Shown here piece after piece: positions 3,352 to 23,480 of a stretch of 29,507 bases of DNA. The stretch's first letter is position 1. Every line of letters starts with the position of its first letter. Position numbers and translations under genes: made by a program. The notes beneath the pieces are model-generated. The model saw only the letters and a program-made list of their open reading frames with translations, was not told the DNA's origin and searched no databases. The stretch is from Chiloscyllium plagiosum (Eukaryota), in assembly GCF_004010195.1 (NCBI RefSeq), contig NC_057718.1, forward strand, positions 5,478,325 to 5,507,831, written 5' to 3'.

Positions 3352-3669
3352 GAGACAAAACAAAACTGCAGATGCTGGAATCCAAGGTAGACAAGCAGGA
3401 GGCTGGAAGAACACAGGTAGCCTCAGGAGGTGGAGAAATCAACGTTTCGGGTGTAACCCCCTCTTCAAGACTGGGGATGGGTGTAAGGCAAGCTGCAAAT
3501 AAAGGGGGTGGTGGGGGAAGGGTGGTGAAGTGGGGATAGGTGAAGACGGGCAAAGGTATGACCTGGTTGGTTGATAGGAGGGATAAATCCGATTAGTGGC
3601 TGAGATGAATGGAATGGAACGGGGAGGGGCTAGGAAGGGAGTTGGGAGATGGGAAGGGAGGTTATTTTG
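3352..3669 (-). mobile_element. Penelope-like element 3' end (3' UTR plus pLTR with degenerate hammerhead)
   Basis: Terminal motif actgcagatgctggaatcc; minus strand reads cagtc-ttgaaga-gggggttacaccc-gaaacgtt-gattt; followed by a G-rich stretch like the reverse complement of 18690-18900. Confidence 0.8.
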
Positions 3670-4311
3670 AGCTCTCCAATTTCAACAGCGAATTGAGAGT
3701 GAAGTCTGCAGTAATGCAGGACTTTGCTGAACAGTGCAGTGACCCAGGGCTGAGAATCCTGTTACAACTCACTGACAATGTTGCTGAAAGTCCACATTTC
3801 TACCTTGATTAGCAGTTGTTTGTGCACATCAGACGCTGGCTGTTAAAATGCCCATAATCTGGGAAACATTTTAATTGTTAATGTTAGGTTTGTGACTTAA
3901 AGAATCCTTTCTTTAAACTTTTTCTACAATTCAACCTAATTTTCTAATCAACCTGTTCCAAGATATTATGGAGCATGTCAGACTGAAACCTGGAACTCCC
4001 GGTAAAGAAACCTTTAAAAGAACCTGAGGAAATTCAGAGCAAGGACAGAAGGAGGGAAAATGATTTTTAAGACAAGTAAATCTTCATTCACTAAACTCGG
4101 GTGTCACTGGTAAAATCAGTATGCACTGCTATTGCCCTTGAGCAGGTTACAGTACATCAACTTCTTGAATATAACTGAGTTACTTACTAAGTCACTTCCT
4201 TGTGCCTAAGAAGGCTCATGCAGCTTGTCTCAATGACTACCGCCCAGTGGCCCTAACTTCAGTGGTCATGAAGTGCTTTGAAATGCTGGTCATGGCATTA
4301 ATCAACTCCAG

Positions 4312-4542
4312 GGTAAAAACAATGACTGCAGATGCTGGAAACCAGATTCTGGATCAATGGTGCTGGAAGAGCACAGCAGTTCAGGCAGCATCCGAGCAGC
4401 TTCAGCAAAATCGACGTTTCGGGCAAAAGCCCTTCATCAGGAATAAAGGCAGAGAGCCTGAAGCGTGGAGAAATAAGCTACGGGAGGGTGGGAGTGGGGA
4501 GAGAGTAGCATAGAGTTTAAAAATGGGTGAGTGGGGGAGATG
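4312..4542 (-). mobile_element. Penelope-like element 3' end, relatively young
   Basis: ggtaaaaacaatgactgcagatgctggaaaccagattctgg...gacgtttcgggcaaaagcccttcatcaggaat followed by a G-rich UTR; CpGs retained. Confidence 0.85.
4408..4444 (-). ncRNA. Minimal type I hammerhead ribozyme motif (intact core)
   Basis: Minus strand AUUC-CUGAUGA-A-GGGC UUUU GCCC-GAAAC-GUC-GAUU: both conserved core boxes, 4-bp helix II, GUC triplet, palindromic ACGU in place of helix III, and a short imperfect helix I. Confidence 0.75.
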
Positions 4543-4695
4543 ACTACTCTTGAGCCACTCCAATAAGTGGAGAGTGTCAAGCTCCTGGGGGTGGTCATCC
4601 ACAACAAGCTTTCTTGGACTCTTCATGTGGACGTACTGGTTACAAAGGCCTGACAACGTCTCTTTTTCATCAGACAGAGGAAAAAAACAGAATTA

Positions 4696-4784
4696 AAAGT
4701 GTGTTGCTGGAAAAGCACAGCAAATCAAGCAGCATCTGAGGAGCAGGAGAGTTGATGTTTCGGGCATAAACCCTTCATCAGGAA
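4696..4784 (-). mobile_element. PLE pLTR fragment with CpG-decayed hammerhead
   Basis: Minus strand ttc-ctgatga-a-gggt ttat gccc-gaaac-atc-aact. Confidence 0.75.
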
Positions 4785-5020
4785 ATAAAATATGCTGGAG
4801 AAACTCCGCAGACCTGTCTATCTGTAGAGTGAGAGAAACAAAGTTAATGTTTTGAGTCTGGTATGACTCTTCTTCAGAACTTCAATACTTCCAAGAGTAG
4901 TCATATCAGACTCAAATTGTTAACTCTGTTTCTCTCTCTACAGATACAGCCAGACCTGCTGAGTTTCTCCAGCACTTTCTGTTCTTATTTCGGATCACCA
5001 GCATCCGTAACATTTTGCAT
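4785..5020. mobile_element. PLE terminal family 2 as an inverted (fold-back) pair
   Basis: 4792-4873 is the approximate reverse complement of 4893-4974; the minus strand of the left arm reads agtt-ctgaaga-a-gagtc..gactc-aaaac-att-aact. Confidence 0.75.
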
Positions 5021-5174
5021 TTGTATGGCTGCTTGTATAACAAATCAATAGTTTCATTATCAGCATTGCTGCATCCATCTAATTAATTCAGTTATTGAAT
5101 TTAAATTCCCTGCTGCAATGACAGGATTTAAACTCATGTCTCCAGATCATCTAGGTCGTAAGCTTAGGAATAGG

Positions 5175-5892
5175 AAGAAACACAGAGAATGCTTGAGGAA
5201 CTCAGCAGGTCTTGCAGAATCTGTGGAGACAGAAGCAGAGCTAGTGTTCAAGAAGACCATTCAACCAGAACAGGAGTAGGCCATCCAGCCCCTTGAGCTC
5301 GCTCCACCATTCCAAAGGATCATGGCTGATCCGACATTCCCCATGTGTACTTTCTTGCCTTTTCTCCATAAACCTTGATTCCCCGACTGATCAAGAATCT
5401 ATCTCAGCCTTAACTGTTGGCCTGTACCCCCACAGCTCTCTGTGGCAAGGAATTCCAAAGACTCACTTCCTGCTGAGAGAAGAAATTCCTGTTCAGTTCA
5501 GTTTTAAATTGAACTCCCCTTATTCCGATACTATACCCGCCTGATCCTCAACTTTCCCATGAGGGGAAATACTCTCTGTCAGTATCCTTAGGAATCCTGT
5601 ATGTTTCAATCAGATCATGTCTTATTCCTGTAAAGTAGACAGGCAGGAGGCTGGAAGAACACATCAAGCCAGGCAGCATTAGGAGGGGGAGAAGTCAATG
5701 TTGATTTCTCCACCTCCTGATGCTGCCTGATTAACTGTGTTCTTCCAGCCTCCTGTTTGTCTACTTGGGATTCCAGCATCTGCAGTTTTTTTTGTCTGAA
5801 ACCATGTGTAGAGTTCCAACCTGTTTAACCTTTGCTCATAAGACAATCCCTCCACACCAGGGATTTTCAAGTCCAGTATGACTCTTCCTCAG
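5175..5892 (-). mobile_element. PLE family 2 fragment split by a CR1 3' end (5253-5865), itself interrupted by a PLE hairpin (5633-5797)
   Basis: gagctagtgttcaag (ending 5252) resumes as ttcaagtccagtatgactcttcctcag (from 5866). The intervening sequence is a minus-strand CR1 tail (caggagtaggccatccagcc...; IPGVEGLSYEQRLNRLELY). Confidence 0.75.
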
Positions 5893-6039
5893 AGAATTTT
5901 TGCTTTTGCTTTCATTAGGAACATGTAGATATTGACGCTGAACCCTTTAAATTTATTCTGCATCTTCACCTCTGCCCCATATCTTTAAATGCCTTAAATG
6001 AACAAAAACATGACAATCTCAAATTTAAAATTTCCAGTT

Positions 6040-6200
6040 GAGCCAAGACAATCCAAAATGTTTCACTGCCAATGAGTTACTATTGAAGGACAGAAAACAA
6101 GGCACACAGTAAGATCCCACAGGCAACAATGGGATAACGACCTATTAATTCCATGTCTTGATGTTAGTAAAGGGATAGGTATTGACCTGAGGACACCAGA
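6040..6200 (-). mobile_element. Decayed DeuSINE-type SINE fragment
   Basis: gcacacagtaagatcccacaggcaacaatg...tattgacctgaggacacc parallels 24066-24148. Confidence 0.5.
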
Positions 6201-6759
6201 ATTGTTTTTAATCATTTAAACTGAGAGATGGAATCTAAAGCAGGACACAGTGTAGATCAAATTAAAAATAAGACACTCAAAGCAATGTAATTATAAGACC
6301 AGAACAATGACTTCTGTTTCCTGCTGCGGTTTAAAATCTGTTTGGAGAGCACATTTGGATCACTGTCACAATTCATGGGGATGGAGGATTTCATAGTTAG
6401 TCAGGAGCAATCAATTAGGTGAGGCTATTTCCAGTAAGATCCATTACCTCTCGATGCTGCTATCCTTCAATCCAAAGAATTGGTTTACAAATGGCGCAAA
6501 TTTGGAGACATTGGTTTTGGATGTTTTGGATTGTCTTGGCTCAAATGGAAGTTTTAAATCTGAGCTTTTATTCCCCATCGGCAGACTGACAGCACACTGT
6601 TTATACAAGTTGCTTCATATTTTTGTTCTAAAGATTTTTTTTAGCAATCAGTGTCTTTCCGTTTAGGAAATGCAAGCCTAGCCTCTGCAAAAATTGCCCT
6701 CAAAATGTAATCTTTTAAACCCTGGTAAAGTTCTGGTTAAATTATGCATCACTCAATCT

Positions 6760-6965
6760 TGAGGTGTAGTAGAACTGAAGCCAGTTATTCCAGATAATGT
6801 TGGATGAAGATCCTGTCCAAGTGAAACTTCATTTGCATATTCTGTTCTTTTGCCCTCTGGAGAGCAGGACCAATATTCTCTTAGATTTCCTGATAATGTT
6901 TTGTTTCTGTTCTCTAGCTTTTAGTTCTTTCTCTACTTGGACTCCTAAATCGCTCTCATCTGCTA
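6760..6965 (-). mobile_element. Old CR1 ORF2 fragment
   Basis: agaactgaagccagttattccag, ggaccaatattctcttagatttcctgat and ctagcttttagt...ggactcctaaatc match the antisense pattern of the CR1 post-RT region. Confidence 0.5.
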
Positions 6966-6982
6966 CATTCCTTAGTGTTTAA

Positions 6983-7990
6983 TAGAGTCATAGAGTCACA
7001 CAAGATGGAAACAGATCCTTTGGTTCAACTAGTCCACACTACTCATGTTCCCAAATAACTAGTCCCAACTGCCTGTGTTTGACCCATACTCCTCCAAATG
7101 TTCCTATTCATGAACTCATCCAAATGTCTTTTAAACATTGTAACTGTACCCGCATCCACCACATTCTCCGGCAGTTCATTCCATGCTCAAACCATGATTT
7201 GTGTAAAAAAAAGTTGCCCTCATGACCTTTAGACTGGATAGGCTGGGACTTCTATCACTGAAGCTTAGGAAGTTGAGCGTTGACCTTATTGAGGTTTATA
7301 AAATCATGAGGGACGCAGATAAGGTGAATAGCAAAGGTCTTTTCCCTATAATGGGGGAGTTCAAAACTAGATATTTTTAAGGTGAGGGGAGAAAGGTGTG
7401 GAGCTGGAAAAGCACAGTAGGTCAGGCTGCATCCGAAGAGCAGGAGAATCCACATTTCAGGCATAAGTCCTTCATCAGGAATGTTGGTGGTGGGTGGGGG
7501 GGTTGAAGATAAGTAGGAGGGTGGGACTGGGGCAAAGTTACTGAAAGGTGTTAGGTAGATGGCGGTGGGAGGTGATAGTGATAGGTTGGAGGGGAGGATT
7601 GAGCAGATAGGTGGGAAAGAAGATGGTCAGGTGGGACAGGTCAAGGGGGTGGTGCCGAGTTGGAGGGTTGGAAGTGGGATGCGGTGGGGCGAAGGGAGAT
7701 GAGGAAACTGGTGAAGTCGACTTCACACAACCGCTCCCTCCCCACCCCAACCCCCACCCCAACGCTACATTCCTGATGAAAGACTTATGCCCAAAACATT
7801 AATTCTGCTGCTCCTCGGATGCTGTTTGACCTGCTGTGCTCTTCCAGTGCCATACTTTTCAACTCCAGAAGAGGTCTCACCAACATCCTGTACAACCTCA
7901 ACATGATGTCCCAACTTCTATACTCAATGGTCTGAGCAGTTAAGGCAAGTGTGCCAAAAGCTTCCTTAACCACCCTGTCGACTTTGTCAT
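6983..7990 (-). mobile_element. CR1 3' part with internal inversion (7231-7395 on +) and PLE insertion (7396-7864)
   Basis: (tagagtca)n tail at 6983. 7231-7395 reads RLDRLGLLSLKLRKLSVDLIEVYKIMR on +; 7863-7990 reads VDRVVKEAFGTLAL...RLYRMLVRPLLE on -. Confidence 0.85.
7396..7864. mobile_element. Penelope-like fragment with inverted pLTRs
   Basis: 7396-7500 and 7750-7856 are reverse complements. Each carries a degenerate hammerhead (tcatcag 7472-7478; ctgatga 7773-7779). Confidence 0.8.
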
Positions 7991-8014
7991 ATCTTTTGAA
8001 AAAGTATGAATAAA

Positions 8015-8350
8015 AGAAATACGAGCAGGAATAAGTCACTTGGCTTCTGAAGTCTGCTGTATCATAGGATCACGGCTAATCTTTTCCCTCAGTCACATCT
8101 TCCTGCTCTAACCCCATATCCCTTTATTCTCTTAGAATGCAAAATATATCTATCTCTGATTTAAATATGTCCATTAATCAAGAATGCACAGTTCTCTGCA
8201 ATAGAATAATTCACAATGCTCTGAGTGAAGAATTATTTTTCATCCTATTAATGAGTGGCTGTTATCTTATTCTGAGGGTTTTTGCTCCATATACAAGACT
8301 CCCCAGTCACAGGGAAACATTCTCCTGGAAAGCCTGTGTTAAGCCCTCTT
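8015..8350 (-). mobile_element. Decayed CR1 3' end
   Basis: gagcaggaataagtcacttggc...gatcacggctaatc...ccccatatcccttt...ctctgagtgaagaatta; same pattern as 5270-5600. Confidence 0.65.
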
Positions 8351-8639
8351 CCGGTGTTTTTAAGTCCCTGAAGACTCTCCTTACACTTGTCGTAGGTTTA
8401 ATAGTTCATTATGAAAAGCAAACAGAGTATGTTACAAATTGTTCCAGTAGAAACCCTGGCAAAAATGAAGAAAAGAAAATAGAGTCAGGTTACAATGTTC
8501 TAGTTTTACAAGGTCTGTTTAGTAGTACAGAAAATGAGCAGATCTGTTAATCCAACCATCTGGCTTTCAGTCTGTCTCAAATTGAGACTGATGACTGATA
8601 AAGTTCTCATTGAATTGAAAAAACATTGATTGAAAAGCT

Positions 8640-9070
8640 ATAGTAAGCATACAGTATGCAACAGGAAAAGTGAGGGAGGGAGAGAGACAATGAGGTAAAC
8701 AACAGGAAATAAAGAAATAGGCAGATGGACTGAGAGATAGCGAGAGTCCAATATACAGAATGATGTTTGTAGAGACAAAGAGAGGTGTGAGAGGGAATAA
8801 ATGGTGAGATGGAGTAACAAATGGATGGGAAGGTGAAATAGAGAGTTTAGGATGTATCAGCAGAAGAAAAGATGCATTAAGAAGGAGTGACATACAAACA
8901 GAGGAATTAAGAGAGAGTGAGGTAGGGAAAGCCATGAAATGGGATATAGGGTTAAAGTGGAAGATAAAATATAAAGGGAAAGAATAAAGTAGAGAATGAA
9001 AATGAGAAAGGGAGAGTGGAATAGAGAGAAGCAAGAAGAAGGAAGTAAGCAGAAAGAATTGGAATGGGAG
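8640..9070. repeat. Purine-rich (GA) low-complexity tract
   Basis: Strong A/G skew with short gaga/ggaa runs and no fixed period. Confidence 0.75.
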
Positions 9071-9599
9071 ACCTTTAAATTTCTTATTTATCAGAGTCAA
9101 TTAGTGTTCAGTAATAAAGAGAGATTCTCATATAGTACTGAGGAGTCTTAATAAGACAGAAATAATATAGTTCAATATGGAAATACAGGAATTAGGGAGA
9201 CCATTTGGCTTTTAACACTAATTCAATATTCTATGAAATTATAGTTAATCCTAGTCATATTTTACAAGTTCATGTGAACTTACACAATGTGAAACCATGT
9301 TAAACGTAAGAAATGTATTATTAGCATTTTAACTGTTACTTGAAGTTGAAAGAAATGGCAAGTTCCATGATGGAAAGGAGTTGGGAGTTGAAGTGTGAAT
9401 ATGGGTAAAAATGGCAAAGGGCTACCAAACAACAAGATGTCACAGCTATGGTCTGTAGGGGACAGCTTGTTAAACCAAGGCAACATGTGTGGGGTACAGT
9501 ATGGGTTAATTATTCATGCAAAGTTACTGAACAACTCCATTATCATTTTATCACATTGGTATTGTAATAATCTTCTTATCTTATCCAGATGTAACATAA

Positions 9600-9728
9600 A
9601 TGGTGTGCAAAGGTATGGGGACAAAACAGGGCATTGGCACAAGGTAATGATGCTTGTTTGGAATGCCAGTGTAGTTATGATGGGCTGAATAGCCTGTTTC
9701 TGCATTGTAACAATTCTGTCATTCTGTG
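9600..9728 (+). mobile_element. CR1 3' tail fragment
   Basis: atgatgggctgaatagcctgtttctgcattgtaacaattctgtcattctgtg, the CR1 3' hairpin plus the (attctgtg)n octamer tail. Confidence 0.7.
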
Positions 9729-9791
9729 GTAAAGTATAAGGATTCAGCTTACCTAAAGATCTCTGTTGGATTTATTCATATTTAAACCTAG

Positions 9792-9858
9792 ACACAGGCT
9801 GTGCTTTGAATGGTGCAGTGCAGAGGCCTGTGGCATATTGTCAAGTGACAACATCCAG
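9792..9858 (+). pseudogene. Degenerate duplicate (pseudo-exon or alternative exon) of the 10232 exon
   Basis: 9799-9832 matches 10256-10290 at 29 of 35 columns; bounded by cctag| and CAG|gtactt. Confidence 0.4.
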
Positions 9859-10231
9859 GTACTTAGCTCATTTGTACATTCATCTCTTACATAAACATCA
9901 CTTTTTATTTGGCAAAGGTAGTTCTCACATGTTACAAGTAAAAACATAAACATTGGTTAATAGCAAACTATGCAGAGAAAGGACTGTGAAATTCATAGAA
10001 ATTTAATGGTAAATATATCATTTCAGCAGTTTAACAACTCTTTCAGAACTTGTTCTGGTACAACTTCTGGAAGGGTGGAATTCCCACTTGGCTGTTCTTG
10101 GTCTAAAGCTATGTCTTTAGAATGTCGACTGATGTCCTGACGTTTTATCACAGTGTCATGATCTGGGTGTGTTTGCTGAGCATAATTGGTGTAATATCTA
10201 CTTTCTTTAACTGTCTTCTGCTCCTCCGCAG

Positions 10232-10340
10232 CACAATGCACTCTAGAGACATGACCTGTGCCTTGAGAGCTGCTGTGCAGAGAGCCTGTGATAGTGTGGC
10301 ACAGCTTACTCGGCTCTCTTCAAGCGTCGTTCCTCCAAAG
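10232..10340 (+). CDS. Candidate internal coding exon of an unidentified host gene
   Basis: Branch-like ctttaac, then the polypyrimidine tract tgtcttctgctcctccgcag|. Only one frame is open: TMHSRDMTCALRAAVQRACDSVAQLTRLSSSVVPPK. Donor AAG|gtgata, with an alternative AAG|gtgaat at 10370. Confidence 0.65.
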
Positions 10341-10926
10341 GTGATAACGCAAGTATCAGGATGGTCAAAGGTGAATTGGATGGATATTTGTGTGTTTGAC
10401 CTACGTTCCTAAAGTTCTTTAAAAGGGTCTCTGAGGATTTGATTTGAAATGCCACCTGGACCTGAGCATACCAGTGGAAATTACACATTTAGAAGCAGAA
10501 TCACTGTTTGCCTATTGTGAACATCTTTGACACAGAAGTAGCAGCAGTAAGGAAAATTTGTAATTTCTTTAGGATGTTTAGAAAACCATGAATCTTTAAA
10601 TCAGAATGTTGGACAATGACTTATTTGCGCTTGTATCACTTGTTAATGGATCAATTATAATGTTTGGATATTAAAGCTATCCACGTAACTGGCAGGGTAA
10701 CCCTAGACCTGGATGCAATACTATACAAAAGAGGTTAAAATATGGACACAGGCAACTAACAGGTGAACAGAGAGACAAAGACAGAAGTTGAAGACTGGGA
10801 AGATTTTAGAAAAACATGCCATTGTATAGAAGATAGCAGATATGGGACTTTATTTACACTGACCGTGCTGCCTGTGAAAGGGACTGGAATTCTGCTCAGG
10901 AGAACTGTGTAACTAAAACTGAGACT

Positions 10927-11103
10927 AGGCAAAAGTGAGGACTGCAGATGCTGGAGATCAGAGTCAAGATTAGAGTGGTGCTGGAAAAACACAGCAGGTC
11001 AGGCAGCATTCTGATGAAGGTCTCCTGCCCGAAACGTCGATTTTCCTGCTCCTCAGATGCTGTCTGACCTGCTGTGCTTTTCCAGCACCACCCTAATCTT
11101 GTC
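10927..11103. mobile_element. 177-bp PLE-derived fold-back insertion with 15-bp target-site duplication
   Basis: TSD actaaaactgagact (10912-10926) / actaaaactgggact (11104-11118). Inverted arms flank a hammerhead core. Confidence 0.85.
11007..11042 (+). ncRNA. Minimal type I hammerhead ribozyme motif
   Basis: CAUU-CUGAUGA-A-GGUC UCCU GCCC-GAAAC-GUC-GAUU. Core boxes and GUC are intact; there is one mismatch in helix II. Confidence 0.65.
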
Positions 11104-11895
11104 ACTAAAACTGGGACTGCACAGGCTGAGTGCACTGCTTAGCACCGTCATATATCAAAAACTTTGTTGTACCAAATATTCCTTGTGTATTTTTTAGTTC
11201 ATACTGAATATAATGAACATAATATATGTACTGTAAGCACTTACTCAAGTTTTATTTTAGTTGATTCTGATCATGTCAGAAGAAAGTGACTGAGGTAAAA
11301 CATTATCTTGGAAATCCTTCATTTGGGGTTCATTTGGTAAATTTATTTGTTTTAGTTTACAGATCCCCAAGGGGACTGTAACACTGTTAAAGACAGATTG
11401 TATTATGTGTCCTGAGTCTAGAGCACCTTCTGATGAGCAGCACCTTATCATCAAGGACAGAAGTAGATCAAAGATTTGAAAGATTTGGGGCTCTTTCTCC
11501 TAAGCTCATACTGTCAATGTGCCATGCCTTCTGAGAGGATGGGAGAAGTTACTTCCCACAATGTTTTAATTCAAAATGAAATTTGTTTGGGATCAGTTTG
11601 AGGGACAATCCTATGATTTGGAAAATTTCCCCCTTCCTTTCTATGTTGGCTTAAGAATCGCCGTATTTGTTAACAATGAGAAAAGCATGTTTTTTCTCTT
11701 TAACAGGCTGTGATAAAAACAGATCTTGACTCCATTACCAGATGTCCAAGTGTGACACAAGATGATGCTTTGATCTTCCATTCAATTATCTTGTTCCTGA
11801 TGATGCCAACACATATAATACCAGTGTTTGCTGTCCAAAATAATGGAATATAAATCAAAAAATCTTGCTGCAAAAGATGAAGCAAGTTGTTCAGT

Positions 11896-12236
11896 AAAAT
11901 AATGAGAGGTATGGTTGGAGTTGATGGTCGTTCTCTTTTCCCTAACATGGGGAATTTCAAGACTAGAAGGTATATTTTTAAGAGGAGAGATTTAAAAAGG
12001 ACATAAGAGGCAATGTTTTTACAAAGAGGTGGTTTGTGTGTGGAATGAACTTCCTGAGCAAGTGGTGGATGCGGGTACAATAACAACGTTTAAATGGATA
12101 CATGAATAGGGAAAGTTCGGATGGATTTGGACCAGAAGCAGGCAGGTGGGATTGTTTAGTTTGGGATTATGTTCAGCATGGACTAGTTGGACCGAAGGGT
12201 CTGTTTCCGTGCTATATGACCGTATGACTCTATGAT
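11896..12236 (+). mobile_element. CR1 (HER1-like) 3' end
   Basis: FTKRWFVCGMN-like remnant of FFTQRVV..WN.LP, then ttggaccgaagggtctgtttccgtgct and the (atgactct)n tail. Confidence 0.9.
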
Positions 12237-12342
12237 TATCTAGATACATTTGAGAATACCAAATTTCAAAAGGAACAATAATTGGTGCTACATGGTGAAA
12301 GGTTGCTGAATGGTTGGCAGTTCCTGCAAGGAAGTTTACTTA

Positions 12343-13240
12343 ACCCCTACTGTACTCCCTGTACAATCACAACTGTGTCACCAAATTCCGTATGAGCACC
12401 ATTTACAAGTTTGCTGATGACACCACTGTTGTAGGCTGGATATCAAACAATGATGAGTCAGAAAGGAGATAGAGGGCTTAGTGATGTGATGCAATGATAA
12501 CAATTTCTCCCTCAATGTCAGCACAACAAAAAAACTGATAATTGACTCCAGAAAGAAAGGAGGTGGACGTGCCCCCATCTCTGGCAATGGAGTTGAATTG
12601 GAGAGGGTAGAGAGCGTCAAGTTCTGAGGAGTCATGATGACCACCATCCGTACTGGACCTCTCAGTCAAGAAAGCACAACAATGCCTCTTCTTCCTGCGG
12701 AGGCTTCAGAAATTCAGCATGTCTGTAAAGAATTTCACTGACTTCTAAGATACACTATAGAAAGCACTCTATATGGGTGCATCATGGTTTGATATGGTAA
12801 CTGCTCTGCCCAGAACCATAAGAGACTACTCAGAGTGTGAACACAACCTAGAGCATCACAAAAGCCAACCTCCCATCCCTGGATTCCATCTATATGTCTT
12901 ATTGCTGTGGTAAGGCTGCCAACATCATCAAAGACCCCACCCAACCTGTTAATGCTCTTTTCCAACTTCTTCTGGAGGCAGAAGACACAGAAGCTGAAAT
13001 GCATGTTCCAACAGGTTCAAGAACAGCTTCTTCCATGCAATTATTGGGCTGCTGAATAGACCTCTCTAGTTTCAAAACAAATGTTGATCTTGCTTTTGTG
13101 CACCTCCAGCCGTAACCTTGTATGCCTCTCTTTGTCTGAACAATATGGTCTGTATCTCCTTGTATGTTGCCTCTATTGCTTGCAAAACAAAACTTTTCAC
13201 TGTACATAGGGACATGTACCAACAATAAATTTAAAAAATA
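12343..13240 (+). mobile_element. Rex1/Babar LINE, 5'-truncated
   Basis: PLLYSLY..CV.KF...IYKFADDTTVVGWI, VESVKF*GV, IIKDPTQP, RFKNSFF, and the 3' tail cttttcactgtac...acaataaa. Confidence 0.9.
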
Positions 13241-13319
13241 AGTTATTACCATAGTGAATGTGCCGGGGATATATACCTGAAACTCATGCAGCAATGTCCT
13301 GGAACTGAGATGAATGACC

Positions 13320-14975
13320 TCGAAGATCAACAACCATAACGAGTACAGAGCGAAGTCGAGTACAATCACTAACAATAATCCATCCCTCCCCGATGAGCTG
13401 AATGCATTCTACGCTTATTTGGAACAGAATGTCAGTGAAGTGATGTCACCTGCCCCGACAGCTTCGGATGCCCCCGTACCCACAGTCACTGCCAGAGCCG
13501 TCAGATCAACCTGCTTGAGGGTGAACCCTCACGAAGCGACCGACCTGGATGGAGTCCCTAAATGTGCATTCAGATTCTGTGTGGACCAGCAGGTGAGAGT
13601 ATTTGCACACATGTTTAATCTCGCCTTCCTCCGATCTGAGGTTCCCGCCTACTTCACGAAGACCATTGTCATGCTGGTGCCAAAGAAAAATCAGGCTGCA
13701 TGCCTTAATGACTACCATCCAGTGGCTCTGATGTCCATCATTATGGACAACCATACTTTGAGAGGTTACTAATAGCTCACATTAACTCCACCCTCCTAAA
13801 TTGCAATTATCCCCTATAATTCACCTACCATCACCATTGGTCCAAGGGAGACGTCCCTACACTCACCTCATGGAACGTCTGGATAACAAGGGCACCTACG
13901 TCCGACTCCTATTTATTGACATTCAACACTATAATTTAACCAATCTCATCTTCGGCACCAAGGATTCTGCTCCTCGCCCCCACTTTGCAACTGGATCTTT
14001 GACTTCCTGACATGCAGACCTCAGTCAGTAAGGATAGATGACAACACCTCCTCCACCATAATCCTCAACACCGATGCCCCACAAAACTGTATACTCAGCC
14101 CCTTACTGTTCTCCTTACACACTCACAACTGTGTGGCCAACTTCTGCTCTAGCTCCATTTATAAATTTGCTGATAGCACCACCATTGTGGGTTGGATCTC
14201 AAATAACGATGAGACAGAGTACAGGCAGCTTAGCAGCATGGTGTAAACACAACAATCTCTCCCTCAATGTCAGCAAATGAAGGAACTGGTCATTGACTTC
14301 AGGAAGCATGGTGGAGGACACACCCATGTCTGCACCAATGTGGTCGAGGAGTAAATATCACCAACAATCTATCCCGGTCCAACTACATCGACTCTACAGT
14401 CAAGAAAGCACAGTAACACCCCTACTTCCCCAGAAGGCAACGGAAATTCAGCATGTCCACAATGACGTTTACCAATGTTTATAGATGCACCATAGAGATC
14501 ATTCTATCTGGATACAAGACAGCTTGGTATGGCAACTACTCTTTCCAAGACCATAAGAAATTACAGGCAGTTTTGAACACAGTTCAGTCCATCACAAAAA
14601 AACAGCCTTTCTTCCATTGACTCCATCTATACTTCCCACTGCCTCAGGAAAGCACCCAACATAATCAAAGACCCCTCCCACCCTGGTTATATAATCTTCC
14701 ACTCCCTTCTATTGGGCAGAAGATACCAAAGTTTGAAAACACATACTAACAGATTCAAGAACAGCTTCTTCCCTGCTGTTACCAGACTTATGAATGGACT
14801 CTTATATATTAGAGTTGATTTTTCTCTGCACCTTCTCTGTAGCGGTAACATTATATTCTGCATTCTATTCTATTACCCTGATGGTATTTACGTAAGATAT
14901 GATTTATCTGGTTGGCACACAAAATAATACTTTTCACTGTATCTTGGTATATGTGACAATAATAAATCAAATTAA
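13320..14975 (+). mobile_element. Rex1/Babar LINE, 5'-truncated and degenerate
   Basis: [70 protein letters not shown], and the tail gtgacaataataaatcaaa. Confidence 0.92.
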
Positions 14976-14984
14976 GTTGTTGTC

Positions 14985-15520
14985 TTTTGTGCCAGGTATG
15001 ACTCCAACTAGCAGAGAGCTTTTCTCTTGATTCTCATTGACTTCAGTTTTGCCAGGGCTCCTTGATGCCACACTCAGTCAAATGTGGCCTTGATGTCAAG
15101 AGCTGTCATTCTCACCTCACCTCTGAAATTCAGCTCTTTTGTCAATGTTTGAGGTCAAAAACTGAGTGGGGCCTAATCAAACCAACACCTGAGCATTAGT
15201 TGTCTCCTTAAAGATAACAATAGTATTTACAAGAACATAAATATCCACACATAAATACTGTGGCCACAAAAGCAGTTTAGAAGCTAGGAATATTGCATCG
15301 AATAACTCATCTCCTGACTCCCCAAAGCTTGTCCACCATCTACAAGGCAGAGGTCAGGAGTTTGATGGAATACTCCCCACTTGCCTGGATGAGCGCAGCT
15401 CCAACAACACTCAAGAGGCTTGACACCATCCAAGATTAAGAAATCTGCTTGACGGGTGCTACATCCACAAACTTTCACTCCCTCCAGCAGTGATGGTTAG
15501 TAGCAGCCATGTATACATGT
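14985..15520. mobile_element. Fragments of the APE-RT LINE family in opposite orientations (14985-15185 minus, 15245-15520 plus)
   Basis: The first part is the reverse complement of 27560-27765 (ALDIKATFD region); the second matches 28190-28460. Confidence 0.85.
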
Positions 15521-15562
15521 TGCTCCTGAACTTGATCCCTATCCATTTGATAATCCAGCCTG

Positions 15563-15900
15563 AGAGTCATAGAATCATAGAGATGTGCAGCACAGAAACA
15601 GACCCTTTGGTCCAATTTGTTCATGCTGAGTAGGTATCCTAAACTAATTTAGTCTCATTTGCCAGCACATGGCCCATATCCCTCAGAACCTTTGCTATTC
15701 ATGTACCCATCCAGATGCCTTTTAAATATTATAATTGCACCAGCCTCCACCCCTCAGTCTCCGGCGCTCCGGGGAAAACAGCCCCAGCCTATTCAGCCTC
15801 TTCCTGTAGCTCAAATCCTCCAACCTTGGCAACATCCTTATGAATCTCTACTGAATCCTTTCAAGTTTCACAATATCCTTCCTATAGGAGGGAGACCAGT
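15563..15900 (-). mobile_element. CR1 3' end with internal deletion
   Basis: agagtcatagaatcatagagatgtgcagcacagaaacagacc. Relative to 24667-25210 it jumps from gcctccacc to cctcagtctcc. Confidence 0.85.
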
Positions 15901-16129
15901 CTTGGTCTCAACAGGTAACTTGCCTCACATCTGACCCTTCACAAATCCTTGAGATACTCAACAATTGTTGATAAGATGAGGACCAGGCTTTCCGAGGCGC
16001 TACTGAATAAAGAACATTGTACCTTCATACTGGGTGTAACTGCTGAGGCATGTGTAAATGGAGCTATATCTTAGCGATGTCTGTGGAGATGCCCTCTTTC
16101 ACCATCCCCTGCACCTAGCTATGCTGAGG

Positions 16130-16488
16130 GACGAAATGGCCTTATGGCGTTTTCTCTGGATTCTTAATTCAGATGCTCAGGTAAAGTTCTGGAGACCAGC
16201 TTTCAAATCATGCAATGACAGATAGTGGAATTTCACTTCAATAAAAACTAGAATTAAGGCTCTAATGCTGACCATGAATCCATTGTTGATTGTCGTTAAA
16301 AAAAAAACTATCTGGTTCACTGTTGTTTTTCAAAAAGAAACTGCCATCCTTACCTGGTCTGGCTGACGTGTGAGTCCAGATCTACTTCAATGTAGTTGAC
16401 TCTCAATTGACCTCTGGGCAATTAGGAATGGGCAATAAATGCTGGCCCAGCCAGTGATGCTCTAACACCATTCATGAATTGAAAAAAA
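16130..16488 (+). mobile_element. tRNA-headed SINE whose body and tail match the 5' and 3' ends of the 25845-28819 LINE
   Basis: A-box-like tggccttatgg (16137-16147) and B-box-like gctttcaaatc (16199-16209). 16228-16416 resembles 25847-26020, and 16417-16488 resembles 28751-28819, ending in an A-rich tail. Confidence 0.8.
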
Positions 16489-17250
16489 GTTCACTAAGTC
16501 TGTTGTTGTTCAAACACAAAAGTTTCACTCTCAAATGAAGTGAAAACTAGTGACTGTAAACCAAGTGAAAAATGCAGTGATCCAGACTCATAGCAGGAGC
16601 TGCCTGGTGAAATGCATTGAGATATACCAATGTAACAGGAAGCCATTTAACAGGAAAGACTGCCCAGAAACTGATGCCAGCCTAGGTACCACCAGCAGAC
16701 TCTCACTGGAGTTGTGGTTACATTGGTTCAGAAGGTGCTATGGGTTTTCAGTTCCCATTGTAGTCAGGGTTGACACATAATAAAAGCTGATTCTCAGTAA
16801 GGAAAACGGTTGAGTCCCATTCCAGGCATGACAATTGCATATTTCTTTACTGTTAAAATCAGACTTTCACTGTTTGGATTAGTAGCCTTCACGTGGTCAG
16901 GTTCTGGGAACTAATGGAGAATTAGTTGACTGGGTTGAGACCTGACAATAATAGGATGACAGTGATGATAAAATAGGGGAAGCTGTGTTTGAGAATTAGA
17001 TCCAGCAGTCAGTATTGTGGTCCCCCTGCTGCTCCTGTGTCAAACAGGGTGTAATTTATTGGCCACATAACATTTAGACTGAACTAAATGACCAATATAA
17101 GGGTGACAAACAGCACTCAAAGAGTAATGGAGCAATGAAACAGATGGCTTTAAACATGGTTGGATCGATGACAGAGTTTAGCAGGATGCAGTAGAGAGGA
17201 GACAGCACTCATGACAGCTGCACCTCAGATTAATCATTTCACTTGTTCAG

Positions 17251-17342
17251 CCAGTGCGCCTATCAAAAGGTACAGCAAAGGCCAGCAAATTACCTTCATT
17301 GTTCCCATGGAAACCAATGCAACACGGGAGTACCATGGACAG
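17251..17342 (+). CDS. Weak candidate host exon
   Basis: Acceptor attaatcatttcacttgttcag|. A phase 0-2 reading (PVRLSKGTAKASKLPSLFPWKPMQHGSTMD) would bridge the 10232 and 23058 exons. Donors are weak (CAG|gtcata, or AAG|gtacag at 17269). Confidence 0.3.
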
Positions 17343-17439
17343 GTCATACAAAACATTGCAAACAGGTTGTGGAGGCACAGGGGGAAAGTGTGAAAATGAT
17401 TTTATTCAGTTACTCCCAGAACTGAGAGATGTTGCCTCC

Positions 17440-17683
17440 AGCAAAGATTGGTTGGGCTTTTCCCGCAATACATAGCTTTAAACTAATGAAGGTGCTCGAT
17501 AAGTCAAATCAGAAACGATGTATCCAAATGGTGACTTCAAACAACGGACAATGAATGCGGCAGTGATATTTCTAAAAAGGAATTCAGGGGAAACTTTGCC
17601 AGGAGAATGATGAGAAAATGAAAGTCACTTGCTTGGCAAGTGTTTGAGGGGAATATAACAGACACATTTAGGGGATGATGTAG
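17440..17683 (+). mobile_element. Very old CR1 fragment
   Basis: tttaaaactaatgaaggtgctcgataag...ggggaaactttgccaggagaatgatgagaaaatgaaagtcacttgc follows the CR1 FKIMKG.D / FFTQRVV..WNSL layout. Confidence 0.45.
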
Positions 17684-17695
17684 TCTGTTTATGCT

Positions 17696-19005
17696 CCACA
17701 GTTACACTGGCACATCCCCCACCCTTTCCTCCATTACATTGAAGACTGTATCGGTGCCACCTCATGCTCCCATGAGGAGTTTGAACAGTTCATCAACTTC
17801 ACAAACACCTTCCACCCTGAGCTTAGGTTCACCTGGATCATCTCAGATACTTCCCTCCGCTTCCTGAACCCTTTCATCTCCATCTCCAACAACGGACTCA
17901 ACACGGACATCAAACTAACTGACTCCCACAGCTACCTGGACTACACCTCCTCCCACCATCCCCACCCCTGCAAAAACACTATCCCTTACTCCCAATTCCT
18001 CTGCCTCTGTTGCATCAACAAAGCCCTCCAGCGTATCTCCTCCTCTGCCCTTGAACCCCACTCCTCCAACTGCAACAAGGATATACCCCCCCCAACCACA
18101 GTCCTCACTTTCCCACCCAACTAATCTCCAGATACAGCGCATTATCTTCCGCCATTTCTGCCACCTATAGTCAGACCCACCAGAAATGTATTTCCCTCCC
18201 CATCCCTATTTGCGTTCTGCAGAGACCATTCTCTGCATGACACTCTCATTTGGTACATTCCCCCACCGACACACTCTCCACTCCTGGTACCTCCCCTTGC
18301 CACTGCAAGAGGTGTAAAACCTGCTCCAACACCTCTCCCCTCACCTCCATTCAAGGTTTCAAAGGATCCTTCCACATCCAGCAGAGATTTTCCTGCACAT
18401 CCAACCACATCATCTACTGTGTCCATTGCTCTCAGTGTGATTTCCTCTACATTGAGGAGACAGGACACAATTCGCGGAATGTTTCAGGGAACATCTCTGG
18501 CACATACGCATTAACAACCCCACCACCCTCTGGCCAACCACTTCAATTCCCCCTCCCACTCCGCCAAGGACATGCAAGTCCTGGGCTTTCTCCACCGTCA
18601 AATCCAAGTGACCCACCAACTGGAGGAAGAATGCCTCATCTTCCGCCTTAGGACCCTCTAGCCACACAGCATCAATGTTGACATCACCAGTTTCTTTACC
18701 TTCCCTCTCCCCACCTCATCCCAGATCCAACCATCCAACTCAACACCACCCTCTTGAACTGTCCTTCCCACCTTTCTGCTCCACATTCCTCTTCAAACTA
18801 TCACTATCAACCCCCACCTGCATCTACCTATCGCCTTCCCAGCTATCTTCCCCCGATCCCCACCTCCGCCCTCCTATTTATCTCTCAGCCCCCTTCCTCA
18901 CCCACTCTACATTCCTGATGAAGGGTTTGTGCCCAATATGTCGACTCTCCTGCTCCTCAGATGCTGCCTGACCTGCTGTGCTTCTCCAACGCTGCACTTT
19001 TTGAC
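17696..19005 (+). mobile_element. Penelope-like retroelement, 5'-truncated: RT C-terminal half, GIY-YIG endonuclease, 3' UTR and pLTR
   Basis: FLHYIEDCIG (YIDD box), TDSHSYLDYTSSH..CKNTIPYSQFL, PCHCKRCKTC linker and IIYCVHCSQCDFLYIEETG (GIY-YIG). Decayed hammerhead at 18915. 12-bp TSD tctgtttatgct at 17684-17695 and 19006-19017. Confidence 0.95.
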
Positions 19006-19295
19006 TCTGTTTATGCTTTAGTTGTGTTGATATCACAAACTAAAACCTGTATACCACCAACATTTCGATGACTAGTTCTGGCTAAACAGGGCATGAAAGC
19101 AGAGATGTTAATCCCAATAATGAAAACTTATAAATGGAAATAACTTAAAGATGGGCGCTGAAGATTTCACCCGATAGGCAATGCTGTGAAGTCTCTCTGA
19201 AGGTCTGAGCATGCCCACTCCCAACACTGACCTCCAGTTTCAGAAGCTGCTGCAGGGCAGACAATTCAGAGATCCATGCGGGAGGCAAAAGTAGT

Positions 19296-19480
19296 CCATA
19301 AGACCATAAGACATAGGAGTAGAAGCAAGGCCATTCGGCTCATCGATGTTTCAATTCCACTTACCCGCACTATCCCTGTATCCCTTAATTCCTTGCGAGA
19401 TCAAGAATTTATCAATCTCTGCCTTGAAGACACCCAACGTCCCGGCCTCCACTCCGCTCCATGATAATGAATTCCATAGT
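19296..19480 (-). mobile_element. CR1 3' end, (tcttatgg)n-tailed subfamily
   Basis: ccataagaccataagacataggagtagaagcaaggccattcggc. Confidence 0.8.
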
Positions 19481-19948
19481 CGAGGGAATGTGGGTGATGG
19501 GCCTGTACCTGTTTCCTTTAGCAGCTTGCTCCGTTGTGGGACTGTCCTTGATATGTTGTCTTGGAAAGAGAGTTTCTTTGTAGTTGTATGGATGGTACCT
19601 TGTATTTAGTCATTGCCAGGGAGCACTTAGTACTTGTTTCTGTCAATCCCACCATCTATCCCATATCATATAGAAAATGCTCAGTCTATTTTTCACTCAT
19701 CTTTGTTGCAGTGACTCCCACTCCAAAATCTTCTATCAATGATGTGACATGGATGTATTTCCCAGACTGACTCATGCAGGATTGCACACATTTTTTATAT
19801 TGCTTGTTTGCAGGATGTGGATGACATTGGCTGGCCAGTATATATTGCCATTCCTAATGTCACTGAGGAAAGTGAATGCAAGCTGCCTTCTTGAACTGCA
19901 GAAGTCCACTTGGTGTGAACCAACCCTCAGTGAGTTCCATGATTTTGA

Positions 19949-20545
19949 ATGATTGGTTGAATTGAATGACTTACTTATTGTCACCTGCATCTTGAAAATA
20001 AAGTGAAAAGTGATTTATAACCACAATCTGGTACAATAAGGATGAAAAGAAATTACTTAAATAACAGTTCATCCTCTGCTCAAGTTGGGGTCTCAAGCAA
20101 GGCTTCGGGGCTTCTGCAAGTTCTCCATGAGGTCTTCTGGACCTTAAGGAGTAACAATGTTGCCAACATCCCAAGAGGTCACGGCTTTCACTGCCATAAC
20201 CAATACTCTGTGGCTACCATCACCAGGAGTCCCTGCTTGGGGCCTACCATCACCAAGAATCCTCACTCCAGGTACTGACACTACCAAAAGTCCAGGCTGT
20301 GGGCCTACTGCCACTGAGAATCCAGGGTCTGCGCACCACCACTGCTACCGCCACCAGGAGTCCTAGGTCACACTGCCAACGCTGCTGCTACCCCTTACTA
20401 ACACCGTTCTGGGCTCAAAGATGAAGAAGGAAGGAAAAATAAAAGAAATAAAAATGACAAGTATACTGAGAAAACGATGCTGCCAGCCTGGAGTGGATGG
20501 GCTCCAGCAAGCCCAACTGCTACCTACCACACTGACACCATCTTG
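19949..20545 (-). mobile_element. Non-autonomous ~600-bp element with a Rex1-type 3' tail and an internal ~30-bp minisatellite
   Basis: The minus strand starts caagatgg and ends cttttcactttattttcaagatgcaggtgacaataagtaagtcattcaattcaa, like the Rex tail at 14930-14972. No coding homology is apparent in between. Confidence 0.6.
20214..20365. repeat. Degenerate ~30-bp tandem repeat, about 5 units
   Basis: Units of ctacc(a/g)(t/c)cacca(g/a)ga(g/a)tcc start near 20214, 20244, 20275, 20305 and 20345. Confidence 0.75.
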
Positions 20546-21074
20546 ATCCAGTGACACTGTGTCGGCGATATATTTCTCAATCAGGATGGTGAGTGGCTTG
20601 GAGGGGAACCTGAAGGTGGTAGCGTTTCCATGAATTTTCTCCCTTTGCTCTTCAAGCTGGAAGTGGTCGTGAGTTTGAAAGGTGGGTTTGTCTGAGGAGT
20701 CTTGTTAAATGTCTGCAGTGCATCTTGTAGATGCTACTGAGTGTCAGTGGATGAGGCACTGAATGTCTGTGTAGATGGTGTCAGTCAAATGGGCTGCTTT
20801 GTGCTGGATAGTGCCAATCGAGTGCTGTTGGAGATGCATCCATCCAAGAAGGTGGTGAGCATTCTATCATACTCCTGGCCTGTGCCTTGTACTTGATGGA
20901 CTGGCTTTGGGGAGACAGCAGTTGAGTTACAGATGTGTGCACTAGTTTGTCAGAAGAAACACCTGTCGACTATAGAAATGTTAAAGGAGCAATTCTCCTT
21001 GCTTTGAGCTTGTTCCCAAAGTTTAGAGCAATTGAAAGAAACCTAATCAGACATTTGTAGAATTTAATTTTGAG

Positions 21075-21740
21075 TTTTGATTTTGATTGGTTTATTGTCC
21101 CGTATGCCAAAGCACAGTGAAACGCTTTGTTTTGTGAGCAGTACGGGCAGATCATAGTAAGCAAGGGCATACAGATCATAGGGTGAAAAAAAAAGAGGTA
21201 TACAAATTACATTGCATAGGACATGCACTAGCCAAGATCGATATTAGCAAGATCAACATTATTTGAAGTTAGAGAGTCTATTCTTCAGTCGAATAACAGC
21301 AGGGAAGAAGCTGTTCCTGAACCTGTTGGTGCATGTGTTCAAGCTTCTGTATCTTCTGCCTGTTGGAAGAGGTTGGAAGGAAGCATTGCCGGGATGCGAT
21401 GGGTCTTTGATGATGTTGGCAGCCTTTCCACGGCAGCAAGCTGTGTAAATGGAGTCTATGGATGGGAGGTTGGCTTCCATGATGGTCTTGACTATGCACA
21501 CCACCTTCTGTAGTTTCTTACGGAGCTAGGCAGGGAAATTGCCAGACCACGCCGTGATGTATGCATCTGTAAAAGTTGGTGTGGAACCTTGTTGACACAC
21601 TGAATTTTCTGAGCTACCTGAGGAAGAAGAGGTGTTGTTGTGCCTTCTTGACCGTTGCATCTACATGGTAAGTCCTGGACAGGTTGTCTGTTATCATCAA
21701 TTCTGGGAACTTGACGTTCTCCACCATCTCAGCCTCAGCA
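21075..21740 (-). mobile_element. Rex1/Babar LINE 3' fragment
   Basis: ENVKFPELMITDNLSRTYHVDATVKKAQQHLFFLR and CRGKAANIIKDPSHPGNASFQPLPTGRRYRSLNTCTNRFRNSFFP. Confidence 0.92.
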
Positions 21741-21991
21741 CTGCAATTTACAAGGGAAAGAAAGAATATAATGGGATTGATCACTGAGTTAGAGAAACAT
21801 TTTGAGAATGCAAGGGAAATCATGATTATGGAAGAATTCTAAACTGGTAGTTCAGTAAAACTTAAAATATATTCAGATTTCCATCAAGTCCACATCCAGT
21901 GTTTAGGCCAGCATCTATGATATCTCTCACAGACAGTTACATGTGGGGGAATGTTCATACAGGGATTAATGAGAGAATTGGAGCAATATAA

Positions 21992-22350
21992 AGTCATAGA
22001 GTGATAGAGATGTACAGCACGGAAACAGACCTTTTGGTCCAACCGGTCCATGCTGACCAGATATCCCAACCCAATCTAATCCCACCTGCCAGCACCCGGC
22101 CCATATCCCTCCGAACCCTTCCTATTCTTATATCCATCCAAATGCCTCTTAAATGTACCAGACTCCACCACTTCCTCTGGCAGTTCATTCCATAGATGTA
22201 CCACTCTCTGTGTGAAAAAGTTGTCCCTTAGGTCTCTTTTATACCTTACCCCTCTCACTCTAAACCTTGTCCTCTAGTTCTGGACTCTCCGACTCCAGGG
22301 AAAATACTTTGTCTATTTACCCTATCCATGCCCCTCATAATTTTGTAAAA
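21992..22350 (-). mobile_element. CR1 (HER1-like) 3' end, young
   Basis: RYKRDLRDNFFTQRVVHLWNELPEEVVESGTFKRHLD plus the (atgactct)n-type tail. Confidence 0.92.
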
Positions 22351-23057
22351 GCTGATAATGGAAAAGGTATTGATTTTAGGAAACAAGAATTATGACAAAT
22401 TCTAAATGAGAAGGTCTGGAACCTAAAAGTTATATGAATGAAGTAACATGTTTCTGTTGTTATAACATTGAATATACTAAAGTGAATTGCTAGAAATCCG
22501 AGACTGCTTGCATTAGTAAGGATTCATAAGGAATCCTTAGGAACGGTTGTTTCAGCATAAGAATGGTCTATCAAGCCAGGTTTCACACAGAAATTCAACT
22601 TGCCCAGTATTACCATCAACTTAGGTTAACTTCCTCAAAGTTCAGCTACAGGAAATTACACAGTCTGCGGAGAACCCTTTCACTTTGCAAGACTCTCATT
22701 TCAACCTTAAAACATCAACGTCCTTCACAAAACCAGACTTGTTATATGTGCAACTAGAAATCATAATCTATAAAATTACAATAACTCCAACTGTGACAAG
22801 TCTTTGTGTTTGTGAGCGTATATGTGAGAATGAGTGTTTGAGATGTGTTTAATTCAGATAATGAGGAAGATAAATTACTTTCTATTTCTTTAAACTCACA
22901 AAGTCTTCCTGCTTTCTTTTAATGGAGACCCACATGCAAAAGGTAAGAAATGACTTACTTCTTTCCATCAAAAACAGACCAATCACGTTGTAAGAGAGCA
23001 TTGGAAACAAGAATATGAATGGAGAGTAACATTGTGATGCAATTTTTTTTTCTGCAG

Positions 23058-23112
23058 TGGCATGAATAATAATTTAGAACTCAAAGAAATAGAATCCTTA
23101 TTTAAAACAAAG
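23058..23112 (+). CDS. Candidate 55-nt coding exon of the host gene
   Basis: Near-consensus acceptor tttttttttctgcag| and donor AAG|gtaagt. A single open frame (phase 2-0) reads GMNNNLELKEIESLFKTK. Confidence 0.6.
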
Positions 23113-23366
23113 GTAAGTATGAAAGTAAACATTTTATTTTCAGTTCTTTCTCTGGTAACTCAGCCAGTTGCAGAGAATGCAGCCTGACATTACGGCTCAA
23201 TTTGTAATGTCTTTCCCGTCTGCATGTCATTTCAGTTTGTAAAATTGTTATTCTACGTTTATATTCACATGTCACTACTGTTCAGAGGATCATTAGATAG
23301 TGAAGTACATTCAGCACCTCAAGCCTGTCTGGTCAGTTGGTTATGATTGTACTGATATATACTTTA

Positions 23367-23480
23367 TTCTGGATTAGTGGTGCTGGAAGTGCACAGCAGT
23401 TCAGGCAGCATCCGAGGAGCAGTAAAATCCACGTTTCGGGCAAAACCCCTTCATCAGGAATAAAACATCATTGTTTTTAC
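23367..23480. mobile_element. 114-bp PLE terminal insertion with 15-bp TSD
   Basis: ctgatatatacttta occurs at 23352-23366 and 23481-23495. The insert is a minus-sense pLTR/hammerhead piece plus the plus-sense extreme 3' end cattgtttttac. Confidence 0.85.

Follow-up and report, generated by a model that had tools for sequence, protein, structure and literature searches.

Hammerhead motifs in the terminal repeats of Penelope-like elements of Chiloscyllium plagiosum and the probable start of their template RNAs

The stretch of DNA analysed here, hereafter the window, comprises 29,507 nucleotides (nt) of Chiloscyllium plagiosum (contig NC_057718.1, positions 5,478,325 to 5,507,831), has a GC content of 43% and consists about half of repeat sequence. 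A preliminary description made from its letters had listed eleven hammerhead ribozyme motifs and attributed them to the ends of Penelope-like elements (PLEs), and a direct check of the letters finds all eleven at the positions and on the strands given. By their sequence all eleven are minimal type I hammerhead copies lying in the pseudo-long terminal repeats (pLTRs) of several PLE families; the families are labelled A to E for the purposes of this analysis.

Hammerhead motifs in the window and the elements that carry them

A profile made from seven of the window copies recovers these seven at E<1e-27 and furthermore detects 3436, 4890, 4842 and the 3' half of a split copy at E values from 6e-7 to 0.012. 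Five window matches, against 0, 0, 0 and 0 in four shuffles, are returned by a descriptor allowing at most one core mismatch and at most one bad helix II pair, while the number rises to eight, against 0, 0, 2 and 2, when up to two mismatches are tolerated, one of the eight (23254-23285) lying outside the family. The descriptor misses 7769, 18911, 4890 and the split copy, which are known by homology only, and no hammerhead is found among the 10 matches at E<=10 of an Rfam search of the window.

The proposed tie to PLE pLTRs is borne out by homology to reverse transcriptase (RT) and GIY-YIG endonuclease, by the linker and by a target-site duplication (TSD) around the element at 17696-19005 (+). 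This is a 5'-truncated, frameshifted Neptune-like PLE made up of the C-terminal part of the RT (to about 18121), a CX4CxxC linker and GIY-YIG region (about 18280-18660), a 3' region and a pLTR, the last containing a hammerhead relic at 18911-18946 (+; core 18915-18942). The frame piece 17684-18121 has 71% identity to protein P0003 over 102 amino acids (aa) and the piece 18241-18648 has 55% identity over 62 aa; P0003 contains RVT_1 and GIY-YIG domains and also has the CX4CxxC linker. A Pfam search with the RT and endonuclease pieces of the window themselves matched neither family, the pieces being broken. A TSD of 12-14 nt, at 17682 and 19004, brackets the whole element, and the 18911 motif is therefore part of the insertion. 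The traits of endonuclease-bearing (EN+) PLEs are thus present, namely a PLE-type RT followed by a C-terminal GIY-YIG domain, a pLTR with an optional tail, inverted pLTRs and a TSD. With its 5' end missing, its frame shifted and its hammerhead inactivated, what had been called a bona fide RT/GIY-YIG element is a PLE by origin but a relic by state. A CX2-5CxxC linker is described as common to Neptune, Nematis and Naiad (PMC8557442); the linker of 17696-19005 fits Neptune or Nematis, and we call family A Neptune-like. Genome-wide, the endonuclease piece gave 105,996 first-look candidates, of which 150 were scored and all 150 matched, and the best named protein relatives are those of carpet sharks. 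It should also be mentioned that two endonuclease-piece matches, G000:C99514:27085-27480 and C6:15017950-15018324, lie in unusually long open frames of 7,920 and 1,721 aa, which are perhaps tandem repeats or an artefact.

In the customary hammerhead numbering, G8 and G12 have catalytic roles and a G at position 17 prevents cutting. As the preliminary description stated, the full core is kept in 4408 and 11007, and core letters and descriptor scan agree that these are two of eleven. The former belongs to a family A pLTR with tail at 4311-4444 (-), where scan and fold identify an intact minimal hammerhead (core 4440-4413) with a 4-bp helix II and a helix I of 2 bp, a U.U and an A-U, and from which upstream PLE sequence extends to about 4500. 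The latter is part of a palindromic insertion at 10927-11103 (+), recognized by profile, fold and TSD (15 nt, at 10912 and 11104), in which an inverted tail and pLTR (10927-11009) are joined to a forward pLTR that begins at the hammerhead (11007-11042; intact core 11011-11038, one mismatch in helix II).

The remaining copies are relics. A family C pLTR stub with tail at 3353-3472 (-), found by profile and descriptor, has its core at 3468-3441 with C3>U, an intact palindrome and a 4-bp helix I, and the family A solo pLTR at 4685-4785 (-; profile and descriptor; core 4781-4754) carries G16.2>A and G1.1>A and has palindrome and first helix I pair broken. A head-to-head pair of family B pLTRs at 4784-4983 combines a relic at 4842-4881 (-) with G12>A and G16.2>A and one at 4890-4925 (+) in which both core boxes are wrecked. 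We infer that 5182-5247 (-), which holds the cut site, the 3' strand of helix I and the tail and is 82% identical to 4921-4982, and 5865-5896 (-), which holds the first box, helix II and GAAA, are the two halves of one family B copy (5240/5890) with about 620 nt of other repeats in between. A 5'-truncated family A PLE end at 7391-7721 (-) retains about 240 nt of 3' region, is 74% identical to 18677-19001 and has a relic core (7478-7451) with C15.2>U and G at position 17; its inverted partner at 7751-7865 (+; inverted-repeat pair, descriptor) has a relic core at 7773-7800 with G12>A and G16.2>A. The changes in 18911 are G12>A, A14>U and C15.2>U. A family A solo pLTR at 23367-23480 (-), whose 5' end carries a short stub of inverted tail and which has a TSD of at least 15 nt at 23352 and 23481, contains a core at 23457-23430 with G at position 17 and one helix II mismatch. 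A TSD search on 10 window units succeeded for 3 and found none for 7. Two units lie beyond the original list, one at 146-261 (profile) where two family A pLTR pieces that lack the hammerhead face each other in inverted orientation, and a family C fold-back at 5633-5797 that is centred on the helix III palindrome of the hammerhead and has no core left.

Fold, decay and number of copies

The fold is kept by selection in the source elements. In an alignment of 15 hand-picked copies from 5 families, 14 taken from 68 descriptor hits together with window copy 4842, 84.2% of cells are paired, and the covariation score is 0.717 compared with 0.267 in shuffles, a value reached by 0 of 500 shuffles, while slid controls stay at or below 0.20. 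Two-sided change is seen in 7 of 8 pairs, but since this number is equalled by 66 of 500 shuffles the measure is not significant on its own. Helix II is 91.7% paired, with two-sided change in 3 of 4 pairs and a first pair that is G-C in 10 and G-U in 5 of the 15 copies; the unpaired base after A9 and the G10.1-C11.1 pair, both traits of PLE minimal hammerheads, are present. Helix I is 76.7% paired with two-sided change in 4 of 4 pairs, its third pair being open in 7 of 15. A 4-bp AGTY/RACT helix I frame occurs in 2,071 copies genome-wide, and by hand count of 100 of these the first pair is T/A in 53, C/G in 32, T/G in 4 and C/A in 11, that is, Watson-Crick in 85; the family C motif was likewise found genome-wide. 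Helices I and II accordingly covary between families, an absence of covariation being what the preliminary description had held would count against it, and its loop-less ACGU helix III is recovered as well, since ACGT stands in every aligned family, the palindrome having been lost by CpG change in many copies.

The inserted copies, by contrast with their source elements, decay neutrally and do so fastest at three CpGs, which fall on G12, on the palindrome ACGU and on the site of cutting. The sample consisted of 44 family A copies from an unbiased 229.5 kb (the window plus 200 kb upstream), nine subfamily-diagnostic or CpG tail columns being dropped, and mismatches amount to 15/382 in the non-CpG core versus 84/1656 in the tail (p=0.43), with 49/168 at core CpG positions. 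Core and palindrome are both kept in 9 of 33 motif-spanning copies. In folding calculations helix II of 4408 is firm and its helix I has a probability of at most 0.03, while in 11007 the inverted arm gives a 175-nt hairpin of -89.7 kcal/mol and helix II is left with a probability of about 0.01; a copy of subfamily A3 folds as a hammerhead with a helix I probability of 0.5-0.6.

Across the 3.56 Gb of the assembly the exact two-box core pattern has 84,696 + 84,435 = 169,131 matches, one per 21 kb, compared with 1,066 + 1,082 = 2,148 for the reversed control pattern. The pattern demands no helices and may count one place twice, so that 169,131 is an upper bound on folded ribozymes. The 229.5 kb hold 11 exact cores and 66 profile matches, and the proposed density of one motif per roughly 3 kb therefore stands for relics but not for exact cores. 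The claim of a very large reservoir is likewise correct as to number, but to speak of ribozymes is an overstatement, because so few spanning copies keep core and palindrome and the core is conserved no better than the tail. Exact cores on the same strand show no tandem excess, 2 of 98 gaps being below 1 kb where 3.5 are expected, and the window contains no tandem hammerhead units of the kind that define non-LTR retrozymes. In the hammerheads of a further family, D, helix II measures 6-7 bp and the tail is unrelated (examples are L017:1495-1540, L035:8361-8406, L037:9621-9666 and L044:9692-9737); none is found in the window, and the family is probably another PLE lineage.

The 5' ends of the copies and the source RNA

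Where the copies begin was read from a tail anchor with 116,011 matches genome-wide (control 0), the 5' ends of 100 listed matches being sorted by eye. Of these 38 start at -8 to 0 before C3, 27 keep at least 25 nt of upstream sequence, 24 break inside the core or helix II and 3 end at -9 to -25, whereas the second box (GAAACGTC) accounts for 2, the cut site for 1 and positions downstream for 3, with 1 ambiguous and 1 unreadable because of an N gap. Roughly every second match is accompanied by an inverted partner, and the sample may include both members of such a pair. Genome-wide end probes, each consisting of six foreign bases followed by 29 element bases, gave 1,534 matches for a start at -4, 512 at -5 (with a stricter first letter), 212 at U4, 230 at the cut site and 90 at a +5 position, numbers whose ratios are rough since the probes are not matched for CpG content or for the subfamilies that they reach. 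A G stands directly before -4 in 868 of 1,534 (57%) against 23 of 100 listed at U4 (23%; Fisher p=6e-11), and in L1 an untemplated G has been interpreted as a copied cap (PMC4859970, PMC9341517). In family E about 81 of 100 listed copies have their break no more than 7 nt from the core, about 19 retain sequence upstream of it, and in 6 of the 100 a TATAAA lies some 29 nt ahead of the A in TCAGTT. By the standard consensus sequences these read as a TATA box and an initiator-like motif.

Two candidates were discarded in the course of this analysis. A peak at the cut site (+1) taken as a genomic fossil of cleavage is contradicted by the element-derived flanks CTTCAG and CTTCCT of 51 of 100 listed matches (of the 230) and also by the +5 control of 90, and ACGT as a downstream promoter element fails because its distance from the start differs between families. 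In families A, B, C and E the motif that is best kept on the downstream side starts with ATG, 17-18 nt 3' of the cut site, and may be the start of an open reading frame (ORF); it is absent from family D.

Since the 5' ends pile up at -4 and not at the cut site, often carry an extra G and in family E are accompanied by TATAAA at -29 and an initiator-like motif, the templates were probably capped, uncut RNAs with the ribozyme at their start. We put at about 0.7 the probability that the hammerheads are retrotransposed copies of PLE pLTRs whose source RNA was capped, started at the ribozyme and served mostly as uncut template. RNA polymerase II would transcribe the source element from a TATA/initiator promoter with +1 at the A 4 nt before C3, so that the ribozyme would open the capped RNA and recur in the downstream pLTR. 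The RT would then prime internally at the tail of either pLTR; priming on the upstream one would run off at the cap and yield solos of 95-135 nt that bear an extra G, head-to-head pairs would arise when both nicked strands prime, and priming on the downstream pLTR would yield longer truncated copies such as 17696-19005. Nearly all templates would be uncut, and the likeliest task of the ribozyme would be a slow, protein-assisted dimer cutting between the two pLTR copies of one transcript, processing the RNA of the element, while scattered solos, having no upstream promoter and usually no partner, would be mostly inert. Such a scheme is in line with the PLE of the anole, in which RT is reported to start internally, both strands are extended, protein assists cleavage and uncut RNA is the main substrate (PMC11167929).

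Several points weigh against this reading. Cleavage, cap and start site are inferred from genomic copies of truncated elements, and longer copies made from circles that had been cut and then re-ligated would pass for uncut. The copies in the covariation set are few, chosen by hand and related, and kinship inflates its remaining measures; helix I in its commonest family A form has a low probability (at most 0.06) and has to compete with an alternative stem. To the inequality of the probes must be added that inverted partners account for about 20 of 100 listed extra-G copies, which partly confounds the extra G, that the extra G could be a terminal-transferase product, and that starts at -5 show an unexplained excess of C (46 of 100 listed). 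Near -30 family A has only the TATA-like TTTATCT, and in family D no initiator stands clearly in register.

The short copies may instead be taken as a self-propagating family with a life cycle of its own, resembling short interspersed nuclear elements (SINEs) or retrozymes, and the very many TSD-flanked copies of 95-135 nt with a shared 5' end as well as the reported derivation of retrozymes from pLTRs (bioRxiv 10.64898/2026.07.22.740005) agree with this. It is nonetheless unlikely, since three family A subfamilies and family E also have copies running into the PLE 3' region, since the cores show no tandem excess, and since solos lose the TATA box, its place being 5' of the common start. We consider it decidedly improbable that the pile-up of 5' ends merely reflects microhomology or an endonuclease preference at ATT, or pausing of the RT at the fold, the motif being a protein-binding structure and not a working ribozyme. 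The anole PLE endonuclease does prefer ATT and ribozyme mutants of that element still insert (PMC11167929), ATT ends several TSDs here, and 24 of 99 listed breaks fall inside the core or helix II. However, family E starts at AGTT rather than ATT at an equal distance from C3 and with TATAAA at -29, the extra G is specific to -4, and the catalytic positions are fixed while the helices vary, which fits selection for catalysis.

An action of the scattered copies on host RNA, with intronic sense copies cutting pre-mRNA as dimers of neighbours, is very hard to reconcile with the data. There are about 85,000 exact cores per strand, repeat-matching reads occur in both orientations in one poly(A) RNA run, and 4408 (4413-4440, intact core) could pair with 3436 (3441-3468, intact palindrome and cleavable position 17), 972 nt away on the - strand. 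But published monomers of the minimal hammerhead were inactive and dimers weak (PMC4209133), the core shows no excess conservation and no close clustering on the same strand, 11007 is sequestered in its hairpin, no host gene was found around the copies in a scan of the window and the 200 kb upstream, and no read ends pile up at cut sites, in a library weak for that purpose. The pair of 4408 and 3436 is the only plausible natural dimer in the window. As an extension of the capped-template scheme, which we regard as doubtful, the hammerhead may constitute nt 1-36 of a capped PLE mRNA with the 5' strand of helix I as initiator, in which case dimer cutting would free a capped leader of 32 nt before the probable start codon and act as a concentration-dependent decapping switch between translation and replication, with solos as trans-cutting restraints. 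Were this true, the dimer partner would be the second pLTR ribozyme of the same transcript or any of the roughly 170,000 genomic copies transcribed by the host.

Relation to known elements and surrounding host sequence

The motif class has been known since 2014, when minimal hammerheads were described in the pLTRs of metazoan PLEs including Neptune and Poseidon elements of fish (Cervera and de la Pena 2014, PMC4209133), and the copies found here belong to it. They share with those hammerheads the type I core, the unpaired base after A9, G10.1-C11.1, a short helix I, loop-less palindromic 15.2-16.2, the presence of several families per genome and the predominance of single truncated copies with some opposite-strand pairs, but differ in that helix II has 4-5 bp in most copies. 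The 169,131 exact cores are far above the vertebrate counts given there, about 4,000 in coelacanth and about 9,000 in Xenopus, although descriptors differ and helices are not required in ours, and they occur in a lineage that goes unnamed in that source, no shark being mentioned in its available text and one supplement file. Literature listings showed no paper that describes PLE hammerheads in sharks or places a transcription start at the motif, though repeat databases and some supplements may hold such.

Like the anole Poseidon element PAc (Frangieh et al. 2024, PMC11167929), the elements described here combine a pLTR hammerhead with two 3' end points giving an optional tail, and with uncut RNA as main template. 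The ORF of PAc however starts at stem II and its activity has been measured, whereas ours are Neptune-like and the 5' end of their RNA is read from genomic copies. With EN+ PLE insertions as documented by Craig et al. 2021 (PMC8557442) and Arkhipova et al. 2013 (PMC3846280) they share 5' truncation, an adjacent inverted pLTR, a tail of 30-40 bp, TSDs of about 8-15 bp and the CX2-5CxxC linker, and a TATA box and initiator-like motif are also found in the Adineta Pen2a pLTR (PMC3846280). That study explains head-to-head junctions by self-priming on antisense RNA where we favour priming from both nicked strands, and the start is not positioned relative to the hammerhead in the parts of the two EN+ papers (PMC8557442, PMC3846280) available to us. 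For Penelope of D. virilis an internal promoter has been reported (PMC2377424), unlike the layout suggested here. Non-LTR retrozymes (Li et al. 2026, bioRxiv 10.64898/2026.07.22.740005) are likewise derived from pLTRs, carry a type I hammerhead and are present in one chondrichthyan, but are tandem units by definition, whereas our copies occur scattered, either alone or as inverted pairs. What PLE hammerheads do has been termed unclear (PMC8557442). Insertions may in this respect be read as a fossil record of template ends, pointing to capped RNA that begins 4 nt ahead of the core, with hardly any templates starting at the cut site, and the 5'-end pattern yields a concrete prediction on where PLE transcripts start and on dimer cleavage.

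The placement of the motifs inside introns, with 11007 in the sense of a host pre-mRNA, had also been proposed, but neither a splice-site scan nor a protein search of the window and the 200 kb upstream revealed a host gene around them. A co-opted intronic hammerhead would be expected to lie in an intron and to be conserved beyond the neutral level; neither was found, the core decaying like the tail. By its predicted fold, a sequestering hairpin, and because the palindromes of 7769 and 18911, the adjacent copies on its strand, are broken, 11007 would moreover be a poor test case. A search across sequencing runs listed no RNA run containing the sequence. The poly(A) RNA run X7, of which about 2% was read, yielded 5,383 reads, but all except 75 match the window over only part of their length (5,308), and it is weak evidence as regards a host gene; six bins made up largely of unique sequence had a depth of zero, and none of the 15 joints shown was of the splice type. 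No pile-up of read ends was seen at any cut site in X7, only 15772 being listed and the library being weak for such ends, and the run X8 had 0 reads on the window.

On the + strand of the window the crude splice-site scan singled out one strong candidate exon, 23058-23112 with 18 codons, which is also the strongest splice-flanked candidate in the 229.5 kb, and a possible short exon ends at 22941. A weak search found no protein relative for an exon candidate near 10230-10370. The only exon identified in the 200 kb upstream is that of an opioid receptor, L034:9416-9562 (-), about 160 kb from the window; it is mu/delta-like (E 1e-8 to solved structures) and its gene points away from the window. 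Apart from PLEs the window contains decayed fragments of the long interspersed nuclear element (LINE) type at 12334-13061, 13314-14800, 21094-21660, 1161-1568, 24430-25850 and 26100-28800, and RT-like Pfam hints below the cut-off are found in such fragments at 13935-14243 and 27801-28364.

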